From positions 81,637-145,636 of the forward strand of contig DATJGS010000037.1 in assembly GCA_035494735.1 (NCBI GenBank): a stretch of 64,000 nt of DNA. The letters run 5' to 3'. The position numbers were made by a program, and so were the translations under genes. Positions 11,293-55,300 of the stretch are shown here, piece after piece (the first letter of the stretch is position 1; each line of letters starts with the position of its first letter). The notes beneath the pieces were generated by a model, which did no database searches, had not been told where the DNA came from, and worked only from the letters and a program-made list of their open reading frames with translations. The DNA comes from Candidatus Saccharimonadaceae bacterium. Its GTDB lineage: Bacteria > Eisenbacteria > RBG-16-71-46.

Positions 11293-12147
11293 CTAGCGGG
11301 CGGCCACCCAGTCCGTGCCGCTGCGCGCGAAGCGCTCGATCAGGGACGCGAGCGCGTCCGGTCGATCGAGCATGATGAAGTGCCCGCAGCCCTCGAGGCG
11401 GGTCGGCGTCAGCCGCGGCACGCGCGCGTAGCCCAGCGATTCGGCGACGGCCGGCCACGCTTCGTCCTTGGCCCACGACCTCTCGGCGAGCACGGCGAGC
11501 ACCGGCATCCGGAGCCGCGCCGCGTCGCGCGACAGATCGGCGCTGAGCGCGAGGCGGATCCACGGCTTCACGTTCGCCGGGTCCAGTTCGCGCACCTCCT
11601 GATACAGCGCGAGCCCCTGCAGCGAGTCGCGTCCGAACGCGCCGTACGCGGTGCGCAGCACGTGATCGTAGTCGCCATCGAGTGCGCCGAGCAGCGCCGT
11701 GCGTCCGGCCGCGTCGACCTGCGGGCGCAGCGCGGTCTCGACCAGCACCAGGCACTTGACGCGCTCCGGATGATCGATGGCTTCCGCGGTGGCCACGAGG
11801 CCGCCGAGCGAGTGGCCGACGAGCACGACCGGGCCGCCGTCGATGCGCGCGAGCGCGCGGTCCAGCGCGGCCTCGGCGCGATCGAGGGAAAACGGATCGG
11901 GCATCTCGCTTTCGCCGTGGCCGGGCAGATCCACGAGCGTCACGCGCCAATGCGCGGCGAGCCGCCGCGCCATGGGCAGCCAGTGCGTGCTGCGGCTGCC
12001 GAGCCCGTGCACGAGCACGAGCGACGGGCCGCGGCCGAACGCATGGTAGGCCGATGGCGCGACCGGCCGCGCGCCCGAGAACGCGAGGGCGAGCGTGGCC
12101 ACGGCGGCAATCAACGTGAGCGAGAGCCAGAAGCGGGTTCGGTTCAT
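11293..12147 (-). CDS. Alpha/beta hydrolase-fold protein with a signal peptide.
   Basis: HGLG ... GHSLGG nucleophile elbow; start taken at MNRTRFWLSL. Confidence 0.8.
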   Translation of the reverse strand: MNRTRFWLSLTLIAAVATLALAFSGARPVAPSAYHAFGRGPSLVLVHGLGSRSTHWLPMARRLAAHWRVTLVDLPGHGESEMPDPFSLDRAEAALDRALARIDGGPVVLVGHSLGGLVATAEAIDHPERVKCLVLVETALRPQVDAAGRTALLGALDGDYDHVLRTAYGAFGRDSLQGLALYQEVRELDPANVKPWIRLALSADLSRDAARLRMPVLAVLAERSWAKDEAWPAVAESLGYARVPRLTPTRLEGCGHFIMLDRPDALASLIERFARSGTDWVAAR

Positions 12148-12240
12148 GGGCGGTTCGACGCGCGTGACGACGCGCATCGCCGCGGGGTTATCGGCAGGAG
12201 CGCGCCGGCGCTGAACCGGAACGACGGGCGCGATCCGGGC

Positions 12241-14203: not shown

Positions 14204-15169
14204 TCATCGGCGCGCGAGCGCCTGCTGTGCGAACTGGGAGATCACGGTCGCGAGCGTGTCCGGCTGATCGGACGCGATGAGTCCCGCGGCCTTCGCGATG
14301 TGACGCGTCGTGACGCCGGCCGGGTCGTCCCAGCCCATGGCCTTGCTCACCTCCGGCCAGGTCTTGCCCTCGGGCAGCGCATGATCGGTGAGCACGAGCA
14401 GCATCGGCGTCTTCAGGCCCTTGAGCGAACGGCCGCCGTCCACGCTCAGCAACTCGCGCATGTACGACTTGATCGTGACCTGCGGCACTTGCGAGGCGAC
14501 GGCGTGGATGGCCACGCCCTGCGCCGAGTCGCGGCCCATCTTCATGAACACGAGGCGCAGCACCTGGTCGTAGTTCTGGTCCATGAAGTCGACGAAGTGG
14601 CTCTTCATCTGATCGTCGACCGGAATCGGCGAGCGCAGCGTGACGTCGATCAGCACGAGGCCGCGCTGGTGCTCGGGGTGCATGCTGGCCGCCATGAGCG
14701 CGAGCAGTCCGCCGACGCCCTGCCCAACGACGACCGTGCTCTCCGCGTTCTGCTTCGCGAGCACCAGGTCGAGGGACGCGGCCGCCGCCTCGAGCGAAAA
14801 CGGATCGGGCAACGCGCTCTCGCCGTGCCCCGGCAGGTCCACGAGCACGACGTGATAGTTCGCGAGCAGACGCCGCGCGGCCGGCATCCAGCCCATGCGC
14901 GCCGCGCCCAGACCGTGGACGAGCACGACCGTCGGGCCGTGGCCGAACTCCGTGGTCTTGAGCGCGACGGGCCCCGAGGCGGCGCCGGCCATGCCGGCCA
15001 GCGCCAGCGCGGCGAGCGCGAGCGGCGCGGCGGCGAGCGCGAGCGGCGCGGCGACGCGCGCGAAAAAACGGGCGGCCGGGCGCGCCCGCGGGTGCGGGGC
15101 GGCCGGCGACGAGGATGTCGGTTCAGCGGTCTCGGCGTTCTTCGCGTTCTTCGCGTGCTCGGCGTTCAA
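14204..15169 (-). CDS. Alpha/beta hydrolase-fold protein, paralog of 11293-12147.
   Basis: VLVHGLG...VDLPGHGES...GQGVGG. Start uncertain: TTG 15169 is proposed, and the table ORF extension to 15325 would read through the promoter palindrome. Confidence 0.7.
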   Translation of the reverse strand: MNAEHAKNAKNAETAEPTSSSPAAPHPRARPAARFFARVAAPLALAAAPLALAALALAGMAGAASGPVALKTTEFGHGPTVVLVHGLGAARMGWMPAARRLLANYHVVLVDLPGHGESALPDPFSLEAAAASLDLVLAKQNAESTVVVGQGVGGLLALMAASMHPEHQRGLVLIDVTLRSPIPVDDQMKSHFVDFMDQNYDQVLRLVFMKMGRDSAQGVAIHAVASQVPQVTIKSYMRELLSVDGGRSLKGLKTPMLLVLTDHALPEGKTWPEVSKAMGWDDPAGVTTRHIAKAAGLIASDQPDTLATVISQFAQQALARR

Positions 15170-15213
15170 TGAGTGCCTCCGTGCGGGCGCGATCTTACCC
15201 GCGATCTTTTCGC

Positions 15214-15242
15214 TTGCGAACTGCACGTATGTGCAGTACCGT
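15214..15242 (+). promoter_or_regulatory. Candidate sigma70-type promoter whose 17-nt spacer is filled by a perfect palindrome CTGCAC-GTAT-GTGCAG.
   Basis: -35 TTGCGA, -10 TACCGT, 17-nt spacer. The palindrome matches TGCNC-N4-GNGCA, which I recall as the Fibrobacter-type LexA operator. Confidence 0.5.
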
Positions 15243-15260
15243 GCCTCTCGCCAGGTCCCA

Positions 15261-15512
15261 ATGCGACTCGAAACCCTCGATGAAGCCGTCACCGTTCGCG
15301 CCGACTTCCAGGGCGGCGCCGTCACCCCGCTGGCTTTTCGCCGGCGGGGCCGCGAGCACCGGATCGTGCGGGTGAATGCCCGTTGGATCGACAGGGTGCC
15401 GCGGCATCCTCACTTCTATTTCTCGGTGACGGACGAGAGCGGGGACGTCTATCAGCTGCAGCTGCAGAGCGGCGACCTGGTGTGGTGGCTGGACTCGGTG
15501 ACGCTCGAATGA
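15261..15512 (+). CDS. Small hypothetical protein (83 aa), translationally coupled to the downstream Y-family polymerase.
   Basis: Protein-like composition (W, Y, F, D, E) and an ATGA stop/start overlap with the next gene. Confidence 0.5.
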   Translation: MRLETLDEAVTVRADFQGGAVTPLAFRRRGREHRIVRVNARWIDRVPRHPHFYFSVTDESGDVYQLQLQSGDLVWWLDSVTLE

Positions 15513-16987
15513 CGGGCGTCCCCTCCCTCACCGCGGCGCCGGGTGGAGCGCAACGTGCGCCTCACCCCTCTGCGACGCACAGGACGGCACCCGTCGAAGC
15601 AGAGCCGGGCGCCGCGGTGAAGGACGAAAACTCCGAGAGCGGTGCTGCGACCGACGCCGGTATCGCGGGGATCACCGGACCCGTCGGCGCAGCCCGCTCC
15701 GGAGCTGATGTTCCGGGCCGCCACGTCGGAAGCCCAGCCGCGCCGTCTCTGGCCGAAGCCGCGCCCGCCGCCGAGGCCGCGCGCGAAACCCTCGTGCTGC
15801 ACGTCGACATCGACGCGTTCTTCGCTTCGATCGAGCAGCAGCGCGACCCGCGCCTGGCCGGGCGGCCGGTCATCGTCGGCGCCGGCGTCATCGCGTCGTG
15901 CTCGTACGAGGCGCGTGCGTTCGGCTTGAAGGCCGGCATGCCGCTGTCCGAGGCCAGGCGCCTGTGCCCGAAGGCCGTCATCGTGGACGGCCACGCCCAG
16001 GTCTATCGCTGTTTCGCCGAGCGCATCTTCGAGCGCTGCCGCCAGATCGCGCCCGCGGTCGAGACGTACCTCGACGAGGCGTACTGCGACCTCTCCGGCA
16101 CGGAGCGCCTGCACGGCGACCCGCTCGCCGCCGTGGCCGCGCTCAAGCGCGACATCCGCGAGTCGACCGGCCTCGGCGTGACGTGCGGGCTCGGGCCGAA
16201 TCGCATGCTCGCGAAACTGATCGGCAAGACCGTGAAGCCCGACGGCCTCGCGCGCATCGCGGCCGTGGACGCCGAGGACTTCCTGACGGCGCGCCCGATC
16301 GAGCAGCTGGCCGGCGTCGGCCACGCGCACGCGCGCACGTTGCGCTCGATGAACCTGCACACCATCGGCGACCTGCGCGCGCTGCCGGTCGCCGCGCTGG
16401 AAGCGCTGTTCGGCGCGCCCGGACGGCAGCTCTTCCAGCGCTGCCGCGGTTTCGACACCATCGCGGTCAGCGAGCGCGAGGTGCCGGTCTCGATCTCGCG
16501 CGAGACCTCGTTCCACCGCGACACCGCCGAGCGCACGGAGATCGAAGGCATGCTCGAATACCTGGCCTCGCGCGCGTGCCGCGCGGCGCGCGACCTGGGG
16601 CTGCGCGCCCGCACCGTGGCGCTGCGCCTCCGCTACTCGGACGGCGAATGCCTCGAGCGCGCGCGTTCGCTCGGCATGCCGAGCGACGCCGATCCGGCCG
16701 TGGTCGACCTGGCGCGCGCGCTGCTGCAGCGCCTGTTCACGCGGCGCGTCGCGCTGCACGCGGTCGGGATGACGCTGTCCAGCTTCACGCGCACCGGCGT
16801 CGAGCAGGGCTCGCTGTTCGACGAGCCCGAAGCCGGCCGCCAGGCCGCGCTGTACCGCGCGTTCGACGGCGTGCGCGAGGCGTACGGCCACGGCGTGCTG
16901 GTCTCGGGACGCGCGCTGCACCTGAAAGGGCGGCTCGAAGAGGATCGCCATGGCTTCGTGCTGCGCACGCCGTCGCTGACCCGTTAG
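15509..16987 (+). CDS. dinB: Y-family DNA polymerase, DinB/Pol IV-like, catalytic carboxylates present.
   Basis: LHVDIDAFFASIEQ and YLDEAYCDL motifs. The first 95 codons or so are A/G/P-rich with lower GC3, so the true start may be GTG 15794. Confidence 0.85.
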   Translation: MTGVPSLTAAPGGAQRAPHPSATHRTAPVEAEPGAAVKDENSESGAATDAGIAGITGPVGAARSGADVPGRHVGSPAAPSLAEAAPAAEAARETLVLHVDIDAFFASIEQQRDPRLAGRPVIVGAGVIASCSYEARAFGLKAGMPLSEARRLCPKAVIVDGHAQVYRCFAERIFERCRQIAPAVETYLDEAYCDLSGTERLHGDPLAAVAALKRDIRESTGLGVTCGLGPNRMLAKLIGKTVKPDGLARIAAVDAEDFLTARPIEQLAGVGHAHARTLRSMNLHTIGDLRALPVAALEALFGAPGRQLFQRCRGFDTIAVSEREVPVSISRETSFHRDTAERTEIEGMLEYLASRACRAARDLGLRARTVALRLRYSDGECLERARSLGMPSDADPAVVDLARALLQRLFTRRVALHAVGMTLSSFTRTGVEQGSLFDEPEAGRQAALYRAFDGVREAYGHGVLVSGRALHLKGRLEEDRHGFVLRTPSLTR

Positions 16988-17451: not shown

Positions 17452-18201
17452 ATGGTGTCTCCCGTCCGCAGGCCCCAACCGCCTCCACCGCCCGATCCGC
17501 TGCTGGTGCGGCTGTTCACGCAGCCGCTGTCCAGCCAGCAGGTCGAACGCCGTGCGCGCCAGACGCTGCGCCCGGCGGTGCGCGTGCTGCTCGTGATGGT
17601 GCCGGTGGCGCTGCTCGCCGGGCTCGGCTACGCCGCGTTCGACCTGTGGTCGCAGCTGCCGCCCACGCTCGTGCCGCGCCATCGCCCGGAAGCCCTGTGC
17701 TTCGCGCTGGCGGCGGCCGATCCGGTGACCGGCGATCATTTCCAGCCGCCCATGCACATCGAGCCGAGCGCGGCGCTGATGCGCTCGCGTTTCACGCCGA
17801 GCACGCCGGCCGGCGCGGCGCTGCGCGAGGTCATGCACCTCGACGAGAGCATGGTGCTGAGCGAGGCGTCGCGTCACGTCGGCGACTTCGACGTGTCCGT
17901 GCTGTGGCTGTACCTGCCGCCGGGCGCCGGCCCGGGCGACGGCTCGGACGACGCGCGCCACTGGCTCGTGCTGTGCTGGATGGAGGGCGGCGATCTCGCG
18001 GTGTGCAACTTCCGCTTCGCCGGCGAAGGCCGTCAGCTCGACGCCGACGAGCACCAGTGGGGCCAGCGCCTCGTCAATCGCCTGCTCGTGCCCGCGAACT
18101 TCGAAGCCGGCGTGCTCCCGACCGTGCGCCTGCGCATGCCGCGCGGCACGACCATGCCGGCGTTCGGCCCGCCCGCGGCGCAGTCGATCGCCGCGCAGTA
18201 A
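17452..18201 (+). CDS. Hypothetical membrane-anchored protein.
   Basis: One TM helix and a non-repetitive composition, unlike the overlapping ORFs. Confidence 0.4.
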   Translation: MVSPVRRPQPPPPPDPLLVRLFTQPLSSQQVERRARQTLRPAVRVLLVMVPVALLAGLGYAAFDLWSQLPPTLVPRHRPEALCFALAAADPVTGDHFQPPMHIEPSAALMRSRFTPSTPAGAALREVMHLDESMVLSEASRHVGDFDVSVLWLYLPPGAGPGDGSDDARHWLVLCWMEGGDLAVCNFRFAGEGRQLDADEHQWGQRLVNRLLVPANFEAGVLPTVRLRMPRGTTMPAFGPPAAQSIAAQ

Positions 18202-18728: not shown

Positions 18729-18823
18729 GCTAGCACCGGCGCGGCGCGCGGCGCGCGAGTCCGGCGCGGCGTCTGCGCGTGGTGCGGCGACGGCGCGGGC
18801 GCGCGGTTCGCCGCGGGCGTCCG

Positions 18824-21800
18824 ATGACGCACACGCTCGCTCCCGCGTTCGTGCCGCTGCGCGTGCGCTCGCACGGCTCGTTGCTCGAGGGCACCGCCTC
18901 ACCCGAGCAGCTCGTCCGGACCGCGCTCGAGCGCGGCGCGCACGCGCTCGCGCTGACCGACCGCAACAACCTCTACCTCGCGATCCGCTTCTGGCAGGCG
19001 GCGCACGCCGAGGGCCTCGTGCCGCTGCCCGGCGCCGAGCTGGTGACGGCCGACGCGGCGGCCTTGCTGCTGCCGCTCGACCGCCGCGGCTGGGCGCGGC
19101 TGTGCGCGCTGCTCACCGCGCGGCATCTGGACCCGGCGTTCGATCTGATCGCGGCGCTCGGCGAAGGCGCGGCCGGGCTCCACGTGATCGTCGAGACGCC
19201 GGCGCTCGCGGCTTCGCTGCTGGCGGCCGGCGTCCCGGCGGCGCGCGCGACGGGCGCGGGAGCCTCCGGCGGGCTGTGGCTCGGCGTGCGCGGGCTTTCT
19301 TTCGAGCGCCCGCGCCTGGCCGAGCGGCTCGACGCGGCGCGCGCGCTCGGCGTGCCGGCGGTCGCGACCGGCGATTGCGTGATGCTGAATCCGCTCGACC
19401 ACGACGCGCACGCCATCGCCATGACCGCGGCGCGCGGCGAGCTGCTCGAGCGCATGCCGCCCGGCGCGTTCGCGACGCGCGACGCGTGGCTCGCGTCCCC
19501 CGCGGAGTGGACGCGCCGCGTGCGCGCGCTCTGCACGGGCGCCGGGCGGCCCGAGGCCGCGGCCGTGCTGCTCGCGCACAACGTCGAGCTGGCGGCGCGC
19601 TGCCGGCTCGAGCTGGAGCTGGGCACGCCGATCTTCCCGCGGCATCCCGAAGTGCAGGGCGCCGAGGGCCTGGCGCGCCTCCAGCGCCTGTGCGACGACG
19701 GCGTGCGCTGGCGGTATGGCGGGGGGCGGGCGACGGCGGGCGCGCACGGGCCGGCGGCGTACGCGGCGCCGGCGCCCCCCGCGTCGCCCGGCGCGCGCGC
19801 CACGACCGTCCGCGCCGCGGGCGCGCGCCTCGCGGAAGAGCTGTCGATGATCGCGCGCATGGGCTTCACCGATTACTTCCTGCTCGTCGCCGAGATCGTC
19901 GGCTTCGCGCGCGCGCGCGGCATCCCGACCGTGGGCCGCGGCTCGGGCGCAGGCTCGATCGTGGCGTACGTGCTCGGCATCACGAACGTCGACCCGCTGC
20001 GCTACAACCTGTACTTCGAACGCTTCCTCAATCCGTCGCGGCGCGACTGCCCGGATCTCGACATCGATCTGTGCTGGAAGCGCCGCGACGAAGTGATCGC
20101 GCACGTGTACGACGCGTACGGGCACGATCGCGTCGCCATGATCTCGACGCACGCCACGCTGGGCGCGCGCTCGGCGTTCCGCGAGACCGCGAAGGCGCTC
20201 GGCGTGCCGAACGCGCGCGTGAACGTGCTGGCGAAGCGCGTGCCGCGCGATCTCGAGGCGCCGTACGCGCCGAAGCTCGCCGCGTTCGCGGGCGGGCGCG
20301 ACGTGGATTGGCGCGAGCCGGTGCTGGCGCGCGCGCTGGCGCTGGCCGAGAAGCTGTCGGGCGCGCCGCGGCACCTGTCCGTGCACGCGGGCGGACTCGT
20401 GATCGCGGACCGGCCGCTCACCCACTACGTGCCGCTCGAGCGTGCGGCCAAGAACGTGGTCGTGACGCAGTTCGAGATGCGCGCGATCGAGGCGATCGGC
20501 CTGGTCAAGATGGACCTGCTCGGCAACCGCGCGCTGACCGAGATCGGCGACTGCGCGAGCCTCGTCACGCGGCGCGGCGGTCCGGTGATCGACGTCGACG
20601 CGATCCCCGACGACGACCCCGCGACCGCGGCGCGCGTCGGCGCGGGCGCGACGCTGAACTGCTTCCAGCTCGAGTCTCCGGCCATGCGCCACCTGCTGCG
20701 CATGATCGCGGCGCGCAACCTCGACGACACGATCGCCGCGGTCGCGCTCGTGCGCCCCGGGCCCGCCGGCTCACCGGGCGGCGAAGGGCGCGATCGCAAC
20801 ACGAAGGAGACGTTCTGCCGCCGCCAGCGCGGCCTCGAGCCCTCCGTGTTCGCGCACCCGCGCCTCGAGCCCGTGTTGCGCGAGACGCACGGGCTGATGC
20901 TGTACGAAGAAGACGTCATGCGCGTCGCCGCCGCGCTCACGCCGCTGACGCTGGCCGAGGGCGACGACCTGCGCCGCGCCATCGCCCACGCGCGCGACGA
21001 CGAGGAGTTCCGCGCGCTCGAGCGCGGCTTCGTCACGCAGGCCCGGCGCGAAGGCGTCGACGATGCGAGCGCCCACGCCGTGTGGCGCGAGCTGACGCGC
21101 TTCGCCGCGTACGCGTTCTGCCGCGCGCACGCCGCCGGCTACGGGCGCCTCGGCTGGCAGGCCGCGTACCTGAAGACGCACTTCCCCGCCGAATACGCGG
21201 TGTCGATCCTCAACCATCACGCCGGCATGTATCCGACGTGGGTGCACGTCGAGGACCTGCGCCGCCAGGGCGCGTGTTTCCTGCCGCCGTGCGCGGCGCG
21301 CTCGACGTGGGACTCGGCGTACGAAGCGGGCGCCGTACGCGTCGGGCTCGGGCGCGTGCTCGGGCTGTCGGAGGCGACGGGCGCGCGCATCGCCGGCGAG
21401 CGCGCGGCGCGGCCGTTCGCCAGCCTCGCCGACTTCGCGGACCGCGCGCGGCCCAGCTCCGACGAACTCGAGACGCTGATCCGCGCGGGCGCGCTCGACT
21501 TCGCGGGGCGCTCGCGGCCCGCGCTGTTGCTGGAAGCGCGCGTGGCCGCAGGGCGCGGCGGCGCGGCCGGAGGCGCGCGGGCGCTGGTACGCGCGCCGGC
21601 GCTGGCCGCGAACGACGGCACACCCGTGCTGCCGACGGCGGTCGCCACGGTGCTGACGCCCGAGCTGCCCGAGTTCTCGCTCGAACAGCGCGTGCGCGGC
21701 GAGCTGGAGGCGCTCGGCCTATGGTTCAGCGCGCATCCGCTCGACGTGATGCTGCCGCCGGGTGCGCGCGACGGCACGGTGCGCGCGGCGGCGTTGCCTA

Positions 21801-22105
21801 GGCACGCCGGGCGCCGCGTCGCGGTCGTCGGCATGCCGTGCGCGCAGCGCGGCGTCGAGACGCGCAGCGGCGACATGATGCTGTTCCTCACCGTCGCCGA
21901 CGAGAGCGGGCTCGTCGAATGCGCGCTGTTCCCCGACACGTATCGCGCGTGCGCCGCGGCGACGCGCGGCGAGATCGTGCGCGTGGAGGGTCGCGTCGAC
22001 GAAACGCTGGATTCCGTGACGCTGGGCGCGGAGCGCGTGGAAATGCTGTCCGCGTCGCGCGACACGCCGCACGGCCGCCAGGGACGCGGCCAACATCACC
22101 ATTGA
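18824..22105 (+). CDS. dnaE2: Error-prone DNA polymerase III alpha-type subunit.
   Basis: About 1093 aa; PHP domain, polymerase core and OB fold; shorter than DnaE1 and lacking its C-terminal region. Confidence 0.85.
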   Translation: MTHTLAPAFVPLRVRSHGSLLEGTASPEQLVRTALERGAHALALTDRNNLYLAIRFWQAAHAEGLVPLPGAELVTADAAALLLPLDRRGWARLCALLTARHLDPAFDLIAALGEGAAGLHVIVETPALAASLLAAGVPAARATGAGASGGLWLGVRGLSFERPRLAERLDAARALGVPAVATGDCVMLNPLDHDAHAIAMTAARGELLERMPPGAFATRDAWLASPAEWTRRVRALCTGAGRPEAAAVLLAHNVELAARCRLELELGTPIFPRHPEVQGAEGLARLQRLCDDGVRWRYGGGRATAGAHGPAAYAAPAPPASPGARATTVRAAGARLAEELSMIARMGFTDYFLLVAEIVGFARARGIPTVGRGSGAGSIVAYVLGITNVDPLRYNLYFERFLNPSRRDCPDLDIDLCWKRRDEVIAHVYDAYGHDRVAMISTHATLGARSAFRETAKALGVPNARVNVLAKRVPRDLEAPYAPKLAAFAGGRDVDWREPVLARALALAEKLSGAPRHLSVHAGGLVIADRPLTHYVPLERAAKNVVVTQFEMRAIEAIGLVKMDLLGNRALTEIGDCASLVTRRGGPVIDVDAIPDDDPATAARVGAGATLNCFQLESPAMRHLLRMIAARNLDDTIAAVALVRPGPAGSPGGEGRDRNTKETFCRRQRGLEPSVFAHPRLEPVLRETHGLMLYEEDVMRVAAALTPLTLAEGDDLRRAIAHARDDEEFRALERGFVTQARREGVDDASAHAVWRELTRFAAYAFCRAHAAGYGRLGWQAAYLKTHFPAEYAVSILNHHAGMYPTWVHVEDLRRQGACFLPPCAARSTWDSAYEAGAVRVGLGRVLGLSEATGARIAGERAARPFASLADFADRARPSSDELETLIRAGALDFAGRSRPALLLEARVAAGRGGAAGGARALVRAPALAANDGTPVLPTAVATVLTPELPEFSLEQRVRGELEALGLWFSAHPLDVMLPPGARDGTVRAAALPRHAGRRVAVVGMPCAQRGVETRSGDMMLFLTVADESGLVECALFPDTYRACAAATRGEIVRVEGRVDETLDSVTLGAERVEMLSASRDTPHGRQGRGQHHH

Positions 22106-55100: not shown

Positions 55101-55300
55101 TGGCCGACGCTTCGCCGGCGACGCTCGTGCTCGTCGACCTCGCGGGTCGCGCGATGCTGCGCCGCGACGTCGGAGCGATGGGGGTGGGGCGACATGTGCT
55201 CTCGCTCGACGTCGGGACGAGGCTCGCGCCCGGCATGTACTGGCTACGGCTCACCCAGGGCGGGCGCATGCTGCACGCGCGGGCGGTCGTGATTCGCTGA
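52196..55300 (+). CDS. Large secreted FG-GAP/VCBS-repeat protein with a T9SS-type C-terminal sorting domain.
   Basis: Signal peptide; repeated DLNGDG/DFDGDG FG-GAP calcium-binding units; C-terminal VRPNP...DLAGRAM...GMYWLRL tail; GC3 clearly lower than in neighbouring genes. Confidence 0.8.
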   Translation: MMTRPSSALSRLIAFAFILVACPTLARSDCPPGTLFQDGVPYAAGPQAHGIVTADLNGDGILDVVVVSSLGVPGSPSGSIAVYLGHGSNGTGDGTFSTPAYFAANNYPTDVAAADLDGDGYTDLVVACAFADVVITLKGNGNGTFAPAVAHATGHVPFGLRVADFDGDGVPDIAVTNNSASSISVFAGVRTAGVFDVGPRHDYTVGAVPLGLTSGDFNGDGIQDLAVAAYNPGAIVELDGIAPGGTFGPAINHPIGAHPWNVVATDVNIDGHPDLVASTGDNVVCTLLGAPGGGFLSPLTSTTAGVTTGIVIADFDLDGVLDVALTNVNSTSVSVLLGNHGGSGGNGTFTSASSSEVGSQPIAITSADFNGDGHPDLATATFASGQLVVLLSGCTLHTPPSLIGQWQARGVLVTQASGDQLSPCIAADDAGGTFVAWLDRRSAVPGQPGPGIYVQRLTAAGTVAAGWPAGGLAVSQGGGESVLSITQDTAGGIFLTWLDSINGARVVRVTASGQLAPGWTLGGILTSNLGAGGCSSCPDPLFAGVESVADGLGGVFVAFAAARYIAVEHVTPGGSLDPAWGTDGLLFGPSNKPLGNCHIATDMNGGLYLVWLVFSYSCLIESPFTCFNTSTTERRHISIVGAVDPAWSGSEGAIRPRIASDGAGGAVVVRSNLPAPYSDSYVVRYGPTGSKIYDVNEHTNITVAGEIIPKPDGQGGTLLLWQAYYGKDFYTLRLAANGAAQGGWLTPGASLGGYPAAIDDAAIAPDGTGGACYAWADGRNAQYDVYATRLTPSGSLAPGWTVNGDPVADGLADQSHVAIARDIAGSFVVCWQDHRNGTDYDVYAQRLTPDSPVATTTSLISADATPSSVTMSWQSSGDPVVGGVVQRRQGGSPWAAIGSVNSDGTGRMRFEDASVAPGARYAYRLGYRSDGQQLFTSETWVDVPLAAVLSLEGVRPNPAVDRMTVSFSLADASPATLVLVDLAGRAMLRRDVGAMGVGRHVLSLDVGTRLAPGMYWLRLTQGGRMLHARAVVIR

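Follow-up and report, generated by a model that had tools for sequence, protein, structure and literature searches.

In the window, i.e., the whole stretch of DNA that was analyzed (64,000 nucleotides), a small gene named imuB-C is followed by a gene for a Y-family DNA polymerase, and a promoter-like region with a predicted LexA box is located upstream of both. A gene for a DnaE2-like polymerase lies further downstream. The features of the locus are the following, with locus numbers (L001 etc.) denoting stretches from other genomes:

15214..15242, plus strand: promoter-like region with a -35-like hexamer TTGCGA (15214-15219) and a -10-like hexamer TACCGT (15237-15242), 17 nt apart
15219..15238, no strand assigned: predicted LexA box AACTGCAC-GTAT-GTGCAGTA, a perfect inverted repeat (7+7) whose arms are separated by 4 nt
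15261..15512, plus strand: imuB-C, coding for an 83-aa protein, very probably a standalone ImuB-C family protein, GSU0042-like and related to Pfam DUF6504
15509..16987, plus strand: Y-family DNA polymerase, DinB-like, 492 aa, with the motifs DIDAFF and LDEAY intact
15509..15784, plus strand: N-terminal extension of the polymerase (about 92 aa), rich in Ala/Pro/Gly and of low complexity, opening with PS[LI]xAAPG
16805..16819, plus strand: beta-clamp-binding-like motif QGSLF of the polymerase (residues 433-437), assigned by pattern only
16844..16909, plus strand: tentative RecA-NT-like motif AALYRAFDGVREAYGHGVLVSG of the polymerase (residues 446-467), with position and pattern as in UmuC and Geobacter PolY
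16952..16984, plus strand: conserved C-terminal tail GFVLRTPSLTR of the polymerase, from comparison with L001, L005 and L007
17043..17405, plus strand: glyoxalase/VOC-family gene, 120 aa, with 54% identity to the L001 gene in the same place
17452..18201, plus strand: conserved 249-aa ORF with 52% identity to the 240-aa ORF in the same place in L017 (9866-10588)
18779..22105, plus strand: DnaE2-like C-family polymerase, 1108 aa as listed, with a likely start at an ATG near 18824

The small ORF runs from the ATG at 15261 to a TGA at 15510-15512. This stop codon overlaps the polymerase ATG at 15509 in the sequence ATGA, and the polymerase ORF ends at 16987. The original prediction, which was made from the sequence alone, had described an 83-aa ORF translationally coupled to the polymerase through ATGA and had judged its composition to be protein-like rather than a GC artefact. 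Both points are borne out by the overlap itself, by the codon-position GC, by dN/dS and by the homologs. The GC contents of the three codon positions are 0.72/0.43/0.83 in imuB-C and 0.74/0.50/0.94 in the polymerase core. In metagenomes, 208 close homologs were found with 75-92% identity and a length of mostly 84 aa; source names are given for few of them, and those are mostly Candidatus Eisenbacteria MAGs. When 1.8 billion representative proteins were scanned in full with HMMER (E ≤ 0.001), 167 clusters at 50% identity were obtained, nearly all of them 81-87 aa long, across which the amino acid sequence is kept down to less than 30% identity. A profile search of a large protein database with the imuB-C alignment mainly returned the same close relatives again, and a tblastn search of plasmids with the 83-aa protein gave no match. 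The pairwise dN/dS between imuB-C of the window and five orthologs is 0.08-0.26. Across most imuB-C pairs it is 0.08-0.39, the exception being the pair L001/L018 with 0.95. imuB-C is a real gene on which purifying selection acts.

The window has a GC content of about 70% and contains many long spurious ORFs, and an overlap of stop and start allows coupling regardless of the product. The ORF might therefore be a product of chance in GC-rich DNA, or a leader whose translation, and not whose product, delivers ribosomes to the polymerase start. The probability of such an origin is negligible. Both versions are effectively refuted by the dN/dS values and by the conservation in all 167 clusters at constant length, and the fold of the protein is predicted with confidence. 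Two loci, L007 and L019, in which imuB-C is found apart from the polymerase, also speak against them.

The family of the small protein was determined with a profile built from 104 diverse homologs of the window protein. This profile matches the Geobacter sulfurreducens protein AAR33377 over the full length (73.7 bits, E 6e-25), followed by proteins of Calditerrivibrio (ADR18603, 62.7 bits), Deinococcus deserti (ACO47649, 22 bits) and Herbinix (CUH93807, 18.7 bits). By BLASTP, the window protein and AAR33377 share 32% identity over 79 aa (E 2e-7). An HMM search had been proposed with the original prediction, and it points to ImuB-C, a family which was named in 2013 by Aravind et al. after small GSU0042-like proteins (PMC3765255). 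The Pfam family DUF6504 (PF20114) matches the window protein with 19.2 bits (E 0.0014), which is below its gathering threshold of 24.2 bits, and it matches 62 of the 104 relatives at E ≤ 0.01 (lowest E 8.7e-9). Published ImuB-C proteins are matched by the same model with 61.4 bits (QBR94233) and 30.0 bits (ACO47649), so DUF6504 can be regarded as an ImuB-C model; on a plasmid from Abditibacteriota, a small ORF flanked by a PolY-like gene and dnaE2 reaches 35.1 bits. Since the window protein stays below the gathering score while 62 of its 104 relatives match, it is placed in a sister branch and is not a strict DUF6504 member. Judged by these profile scores, it belongs to the Geobacter-type (GSU0042-like) sister branch of ImuB-C. 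No papers using the name DUF6504 were found in the literature.

The AlphaFold2 model of the 83-aa protein has a pLDDT of 96.3 and consists of six beta strands without helices. In the PDB, no close fold was found for this model, nor was a match to a nucleic-acid-binding fold. Among the 104 sequences, the near-invariant C-terminal tryptophan W75 is conserved in 99%, and lysine or arginine is present at position 31 in 76% and at position 45 in 68%. The remaining conserved positions are hydrophobic or aromatic, together with E8, P23 and G19; the aromatic residues include W42, W75, F16 and F54. The tryptophan and the two basic positions agree with the hallmarks given for ImuB-C in 2013 (PMC3765255). 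The connection to the C-terminus of proteobacterial ImuB is based on the HMM and PSI-BLAST result published there, with E values of about 1e-4 to 1e-5 (PMC3765255). In this study, an hhalign comparison with Burkholderia ImuB aligned residues 36-67 of the window family with the right region of ImuB (441-471); this match is weak (E 0.005-0.016, probability 3-7%) and was obtained with a shallow ImuB-C profile of 22 close fragments. HMMER scored the family profile on Burkholderia ImuB with 4.5 bits.

Taking the observed and the inferred parts jointly, the best explanation, considered highly probable, is a standalone ImuB-C as the product of the ORF. ImuB-C is a small all-beta domain without catalytic function which also makes up the C-terminus of ImuB in ImuA-ImuB-DnaE2 mutasomes. 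A UmuD/LexA-like S24 identity was rejected, as no Peptidase_S24 hit was obtained with Pfam and the protein is all-beta with 83 aa. The original prediction was right that the protein has no S24 peptidase and is too short for UmuD; Pfam gives only the sub-threshold match to DUF6504. An identity with YolD/YqjX was rejected as well, because YolD was absent from the Pfam hits at E ≤ 0.1 and the model lacks a free N-terminal arm. The match to the 4047-aa protein P0153 (E 1.5e-11 over six stretches) is a spurious beta-repeat match and does not point to an ImuB-C fusion; P0153 is a giant repetitive surface protein with SdrD_B, CarboxypepD_reg and DUF11 repeats.

The protein had been called uncharacterized and possibly a new subunit. 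This stands only for the biochemical role of standalone ImuB-C, as both the family and its pairing with DinB were published in 2013. Standalone ImuB-C was then described as occurring "most frequently" alongside a DinB gene, and often with LexA as well (PMC3765255), and the ImuB-C/polymerase pair was described again in 2019 (PMC6511836) and in 2026, with AlphaFold models of the complex (PMC12926913). The locus is a further instance of this known pair and not a new kind of protein.

The polymerase downstream of imuB-C is matched by the Pfam families IMS (142 bits), IMS_HHH_1 and IMS_C, and among the NCBIfam models by those for Pol IV best (278 bits, below the cut-off). Its catalytic motifs LHVDIDAFFASIE and YLDEAYCD are intact, the stretch DIDAFFASIE is present, and the protein is predicted to be catalytically active. 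The identity to its orthologs is 67% in L001, 55% in L005 and 48% in L007, and 33% to the Geobacter polymerase GeoPolY (AAR33378). The N-terminal extension always begins at the overlapping ATG and has a length of 8 to about 104 aa among the relatives. Its GC periodicity is uninformative (0.79/0.72/0.75), but the extension is probably translated, since the overlapping ATG and the N-terminal motif are both conserved.

Three short elements were found in the C-terminal region of the polymerase. The clamp-like motif QGSLF is kept as Q-x-x-L-F in L001 and L005. It is followed by AALYRAFDGVREAYGHGVLVSG, in the same order as in UmuC and GeoPolY, which suggests a RecA-NT motif; this assignment is tentative. 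The DUF4113 HMM gave no hit on the window polymerase, with UmuC as control at 34.3 bits and Geobacter PolY at 13.9 bits. Finally, the C-terminal tail is kept as GFVLRT(P/A)SLT(K/R) in L001, L005 and L007, i.e., down to 48% overall identity, and GFVLRTPSLT could be a peptide on which ImuB-C or some other partner docks.

The gene order around imuB-C was compared in related loci, given here with the identity of their small protein to that of the window:

L017, 84%: small gene, polymerase, 240-aa ORF, DnaE2-like gene
L001, 78%: small gene, polymerase, glyoxalase, DnaE2-like gene
L018, 75%: small gene, polymerase, DnaE2-like gene
L005, 65%: small gene and polymerase in another genomic setting
L019, 58%: lexA followed by the small gene; polymerase located 3.4 kb downstream
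L007, 37%: small gene, one gene on the opposite strand, polymerase overlapping the DnaE2-like gene
L009, 33%: small gene, polymerase
L010, 31%: small gene, polymerase, radical-SAM gene

A Y-family polymerase adjoins imuB-C or lies near it in all nine distinct loci with usable flanks; five of these nine have a DnaE2-like gene and one has lexA. Co-occurrence of the pair in related genomes had been suggested as a check of the original prediction, with missing conservation beside dinB homologs as the result that would speak against it. The pair is kept in relatives from 84% down to 31% identity. The overlapping polymerase start is present in five of five close loci, as ATGA in the window and L005 and as TGATG in L001, L017 and L018, and this overlap is kept although the N-terminal extension which follows it varies from 8 to about 104 residues. 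In L019, the polymerase has been pushed 3.4 kb downstream of imuB-C by cell-envelope genes.

The region 15214..15242 is a putative promoter according to its two hexamers. Between them, and 24 nt upstream of the imuB-C ATG, the palindrome ACTGCAC-GTAT-GTGCAGT is located (15220-15237). It is the one exact site within the 64-kb window, and the only other site with at most four mismatches to the box is found at 55269 (four mismatches). The layout with CTTGC(G/C), the palindrome and TAnnnT is also present in L001, L017 and L018. In these three loci and the window, the arms of the box are identical, the spacer varies (GTAT, GAAT, ATGC, ACTT), and the box precedes the small gene by 40-86 nt.

A scan for exact matches to TACTGCAC-N4-GTGCAGTA, covering a single genome of each bacterial species, resulted in at least 120 stretches (L020-L139). 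Among the matches listed, 28 are labeled Candidatus Eisenbacteria, and each of the 28 directly precedes imuB-C, lexA or a SplB-like gene. imuB-C follows the box in 19 of these 28 listed loci, with the polymerase visible behind it in 11; lexA follows in eight, one of them counted under imuB-C too, and a SplB-like radical-SAM repair gene in two. Overall, imuB-C is present at 26 of the at least 120 box matches listed. Beyond the Eisenbacteria, further listed matches, from Ignavibacteria, Zixibacteria and other MAGs, precede lexA, ImuA-like genes and a DnaE2 gene. Going by the genes that follow it, TACTGCAC-N4-GTGCAGTA seems to behave as the LexA box of Candidatus Eisenbacteria. It precedes lexA itself, as is characteristic of a LexA box, and the operon of imuB-C and the polymerase is therefore predicted to be an SOS operon. 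We know of no earlier description of this box. With the LexA box defined, the SOS regulon of the phylum could be read from sequence. In L019 (7170-8255), lexA is located directly upstream of imuB-C, and a classical CGAAC-N4-GTTCG box occupies the same promoter position. Neither recA nor lexA nor imuA was found within the 64-kb window.

The DnaE2-like gene begins 1.8 kb downstream of the polymerase gene, and two genes as well as one opposite-strand gene (thioesterase) lie between it and the operon. Its product has the Pfam domains PHP, DNA_pol3_alpha, finger, HHH_6 and OB, with the OB fold at its very C-terminal end and without a tau-binding tail, and it scores below the NCBIfam cut-offs for both DnaE and error-prone polymerase. 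The gene is syntenic in four relatives, on the following stretches:

L001, 10102-13359: DnaE2-like gene
L017, 10677-13973: DnaE2-like gene
L018, 9827-13096: DnaE2-like gene
L007, 8425-11544: DnaE2-like gene

The genes in the same place in L001, L017 and L018 are orthologous, with 62-66% protein identity to the window, and the L007 gene, which overlaps its polymerase gene, shows 39%. The identity to DnaE2 of Burkholderia, Thermomicrobium and Abditibacteriota is 31-33%. A LexA box was not found in front of the DnaE2-like gene of the window, and the flanks of L005, L009 and L010 contain no DnaE2. Based on this, and on the separation of the gene from the operon, the link to DnaE2 appears to be lineage-specific and may not be functional.

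The 249-aa ORF between the operon and the DnaE2-like gene had no significant hit in Pfam or NCBIfam; it has a probable membrane segment. Upstream of the operon, two alpha/beta-hydrolase paralogs are encoded on the minus strand (11293-12177 and 14204-15325), as is also the case in L001 and L017. The 373-aa hydrolase ORF listed at 14204-15325 overruns the promoter and the start of imuB-C, and its true start is probably located further in.

[quoted passage not shown] The small proteins are of one family, as seen in the 73.7-bit match, with 82 aa in Geobacter and 83 aa in the window. In both cases the small gene lies directly 5′ of a Y-family polymerase which is active or predicted to be so, SOS control is known or predicted, and a clamp-like motif is found in the polymerase, with a RecA-NT-like motif (tentative in the window) behind it. 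The two systems differ in phylum (Desulfuromonadota and Candidatus Eisenbacteria), in lexA, which is part of the Geobacter operon but not of that in the window, and in the LexA box, as CTGCAC-N4-GTGCAG of the window is not that of Geobacter. In addition, the N-terminal extension of the window polymerase is long and disordered, its conserved tail is distinct, and a DnaE2-like gene is located nearby, whereas the Geobacter-type module is described as lacking DnaE2.

A survey published in 2026 distinguished 11 module types, among them PolY-ImuBC-RecA and DnaE2B-PolY-ImuBC-RecA (PMC12926913). The latter, e.g., in Tessaracoccus lapidicaptus, was reported only in Actinobacteria (PMC12926913), unlike the window. 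The actinobacterial protein QBR94233 from this module type is of the DUF6504 type, with 61 bits in Pfam and 17 bits with the profile of the window family. A further difference is that the DnaE2-like gene of the window is not contiguous with the operon. For DnaE2-PolY-ImuBC-RecA modules in general, the survey names Actinobacteria only (PMC12926913). The gene content of the Eisenbacteria loci and of L007 suggests that the combination of DnaE2, PolY and ImuB-C ranges beyond the Actinobacteria.

The ImuA-ImuB-DnaE2 mutasome of Pseudomonas, Caulobacter and Mycobacterium shares with the window the ImuB-C domain, a DnaE2-type polymerase, LexA control (predicted for the window) and a Y-family module in which a clamp-like motif and, tentatively in the window, a RecA-NT-like motif are present. 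However, in this mutasome ImuB-C is part of a fusion with a Y-family domain that is catalytically dead, and ImuA is needed, whereas in the window ImuB-C is separate, the catalytic residues of the polymerase are kept and imuA is absent. The ImuY cassette has a standalone ImuB-C of about 80 aa as well, is SOS-induced and contains DnaE2; its ImuB-C from D. deserti is the one matched with 22 bits. There, ImuY is an inactive polymerase and imuB-C is located between imuY and dnaE2, whereas in the window imuB-C comes first and the polymerase is predicted to be active. In UmuD'2C (Pol V) and in YolD/YqjX-UvrX/YqjW, the gene directly upstream of a RecA-using Y-family polymerase codes for a small subunit that is SOS-induced, and the comparison of the position of the ORF with that of umuD and yolD, drawn in the original prediction, fits its upstream placement with an overlapping start. 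The small subunits themselves are unrelated to the window protein, which has no S24 peptidase, SH3-like YolD fold, autocleavage motif or N-terminal arm.

ImuB-C is among the least understood recurring parts of the bacterial systems for damage-induced mutagenesis, a process which drives mutation under stress and the evolution of resistance to drugs. The locus adds a clean, tightly coupled pair of ImuB-C and a polymerase predicted to be active from an uncultivated soil phylum, and it provides evidence that the module with a DnaE2-type polymerase close by is not limited to Actinobacteria. As the pair is small and soluble-looking, it might serve as a model for the role of standalone ImuB-C.

The first idea about the protein, an accessory or regulatory partner of the polymerase, is well supported by the conserved neighborhood, the overlapping start and the predicted shared SOS control. 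DNA damage would lead to LexA cleavage and to derepression of the imuB-C/polymerase operon, and translational coupling would yield both proteins in a fixed ratio. ImuB-C would then act as a non-catalytic adaptor which binds the C-terminal region of the polymerase, comprising the clamp-like motif, the RecA-NT-like motif and the tail, and which forms, with RecA, a PolY-ImuB-C-RecA translesion complex. Since this lineage retains a DnaE2-like gene close to the pair, ImuB-C probably docks on the DnaE2 PHP domain too, as modeled in the mycobacterial mutasome, and this would join two active polymerases in a single SOS mutasome. For an adaptor on polymerase, RecA and DnaE2, we rely on published AlphaFold models and on data for mycobacterial ImuB-C. 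Models of PolY-ImuBC-RecA reached an ipTM of 0.75-0.84 (PMC12926913 supplement), and the interface of ImuB-C with the DnaE2 PHP domain was modeled too, with ImuB-C at interfaces with ImuA, RecA and DnaE2 PHP (PMC12926913). In M. smegmatis, removal of ImuB-C weakens the binding of ImuA' without abolishing it (PMC11791113). It is a possibility, put forward here tentatively, that in Candidatus Eisenbacteria and some relatives standalone ImuB-C ties the DinB-type and the DnaE2-type polymerase, both active, together in one LexA-controlled mutasome, with the N-terminal extension and its PS[LI]xAAPG motif, the tail and the 249-aa ORF as lineage-specific extra interaction elements. If so, a two-polymerase mutasome of a type reported only in Actinobacteria would here be built with a Geobacter-type ImuB-C.

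Two other roles have to be weighed against that of an adaptor. According to a proposal from 2013, ImuB-C mainly binds DNA or senses lesions or photoproducts and thereby guides the polymerase. The two conserved basic positions and the aromatic residues W42, W75, F16 and F54 could contact DNA, standalone ImuB-C is also encoded next to genes for Ku/ligase and SplB-like photolyase where a polymerase is absent (PMC3765255), and in L010 a radical-SAM gene follows the polymerase. Nevertheless, this role is rather unlikely to be the main one, given that the model matches no known nucleic-acid-binding fold, that the 2026 AlphaFold models place ImuB-C at protein interfaces (PMC12926913) and that its loss in M. 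smegmatis affects the binding of a protein partner, ImuA' (PMC11791113). Sensing and adaptor function are not mutually exclusive, and both may hold. Much less probable is a function analogous to UmuD' or YolD, in which an N-terminal arm, possibly after processing, would reach into the cleft of the polymerase and tune catalysis. The upstream, co-translated position and the predicted SOS control are the same as for umuD and yolD, but S24 peptidase and YolD hits are absent, the model is structured from residue 2 and thus has no free N-terminal arm, and the ImuB-C barrel is unlike the SH3-like barrel of UmuD' and YolD (PMC12926913). The adaptor function of ImuB-C is therefore the preferred reading.

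Some further loci were noted during the comparison. A DUF72 gene is located beside the pair of polymerase and DnaE2-like gene in two unrelated loci, L007 (11541-12249) and L016 (1163-1969). On a Desulfosarcina plasmid, the gene order is lexA, DUF72, PolY-like gene and DnaE. On the Abditibacteriota plasmid AP024153 (L015, 224-6295), lexA is followed by a 78-aa ORF, a 417-aa protein with a weak IMS match, a 111-aa DUF6504 protein and dnaE2. The three middle genes are all annotated as 'hypothetical protein', and the 111-aa one is an unannotated ImuB-C.
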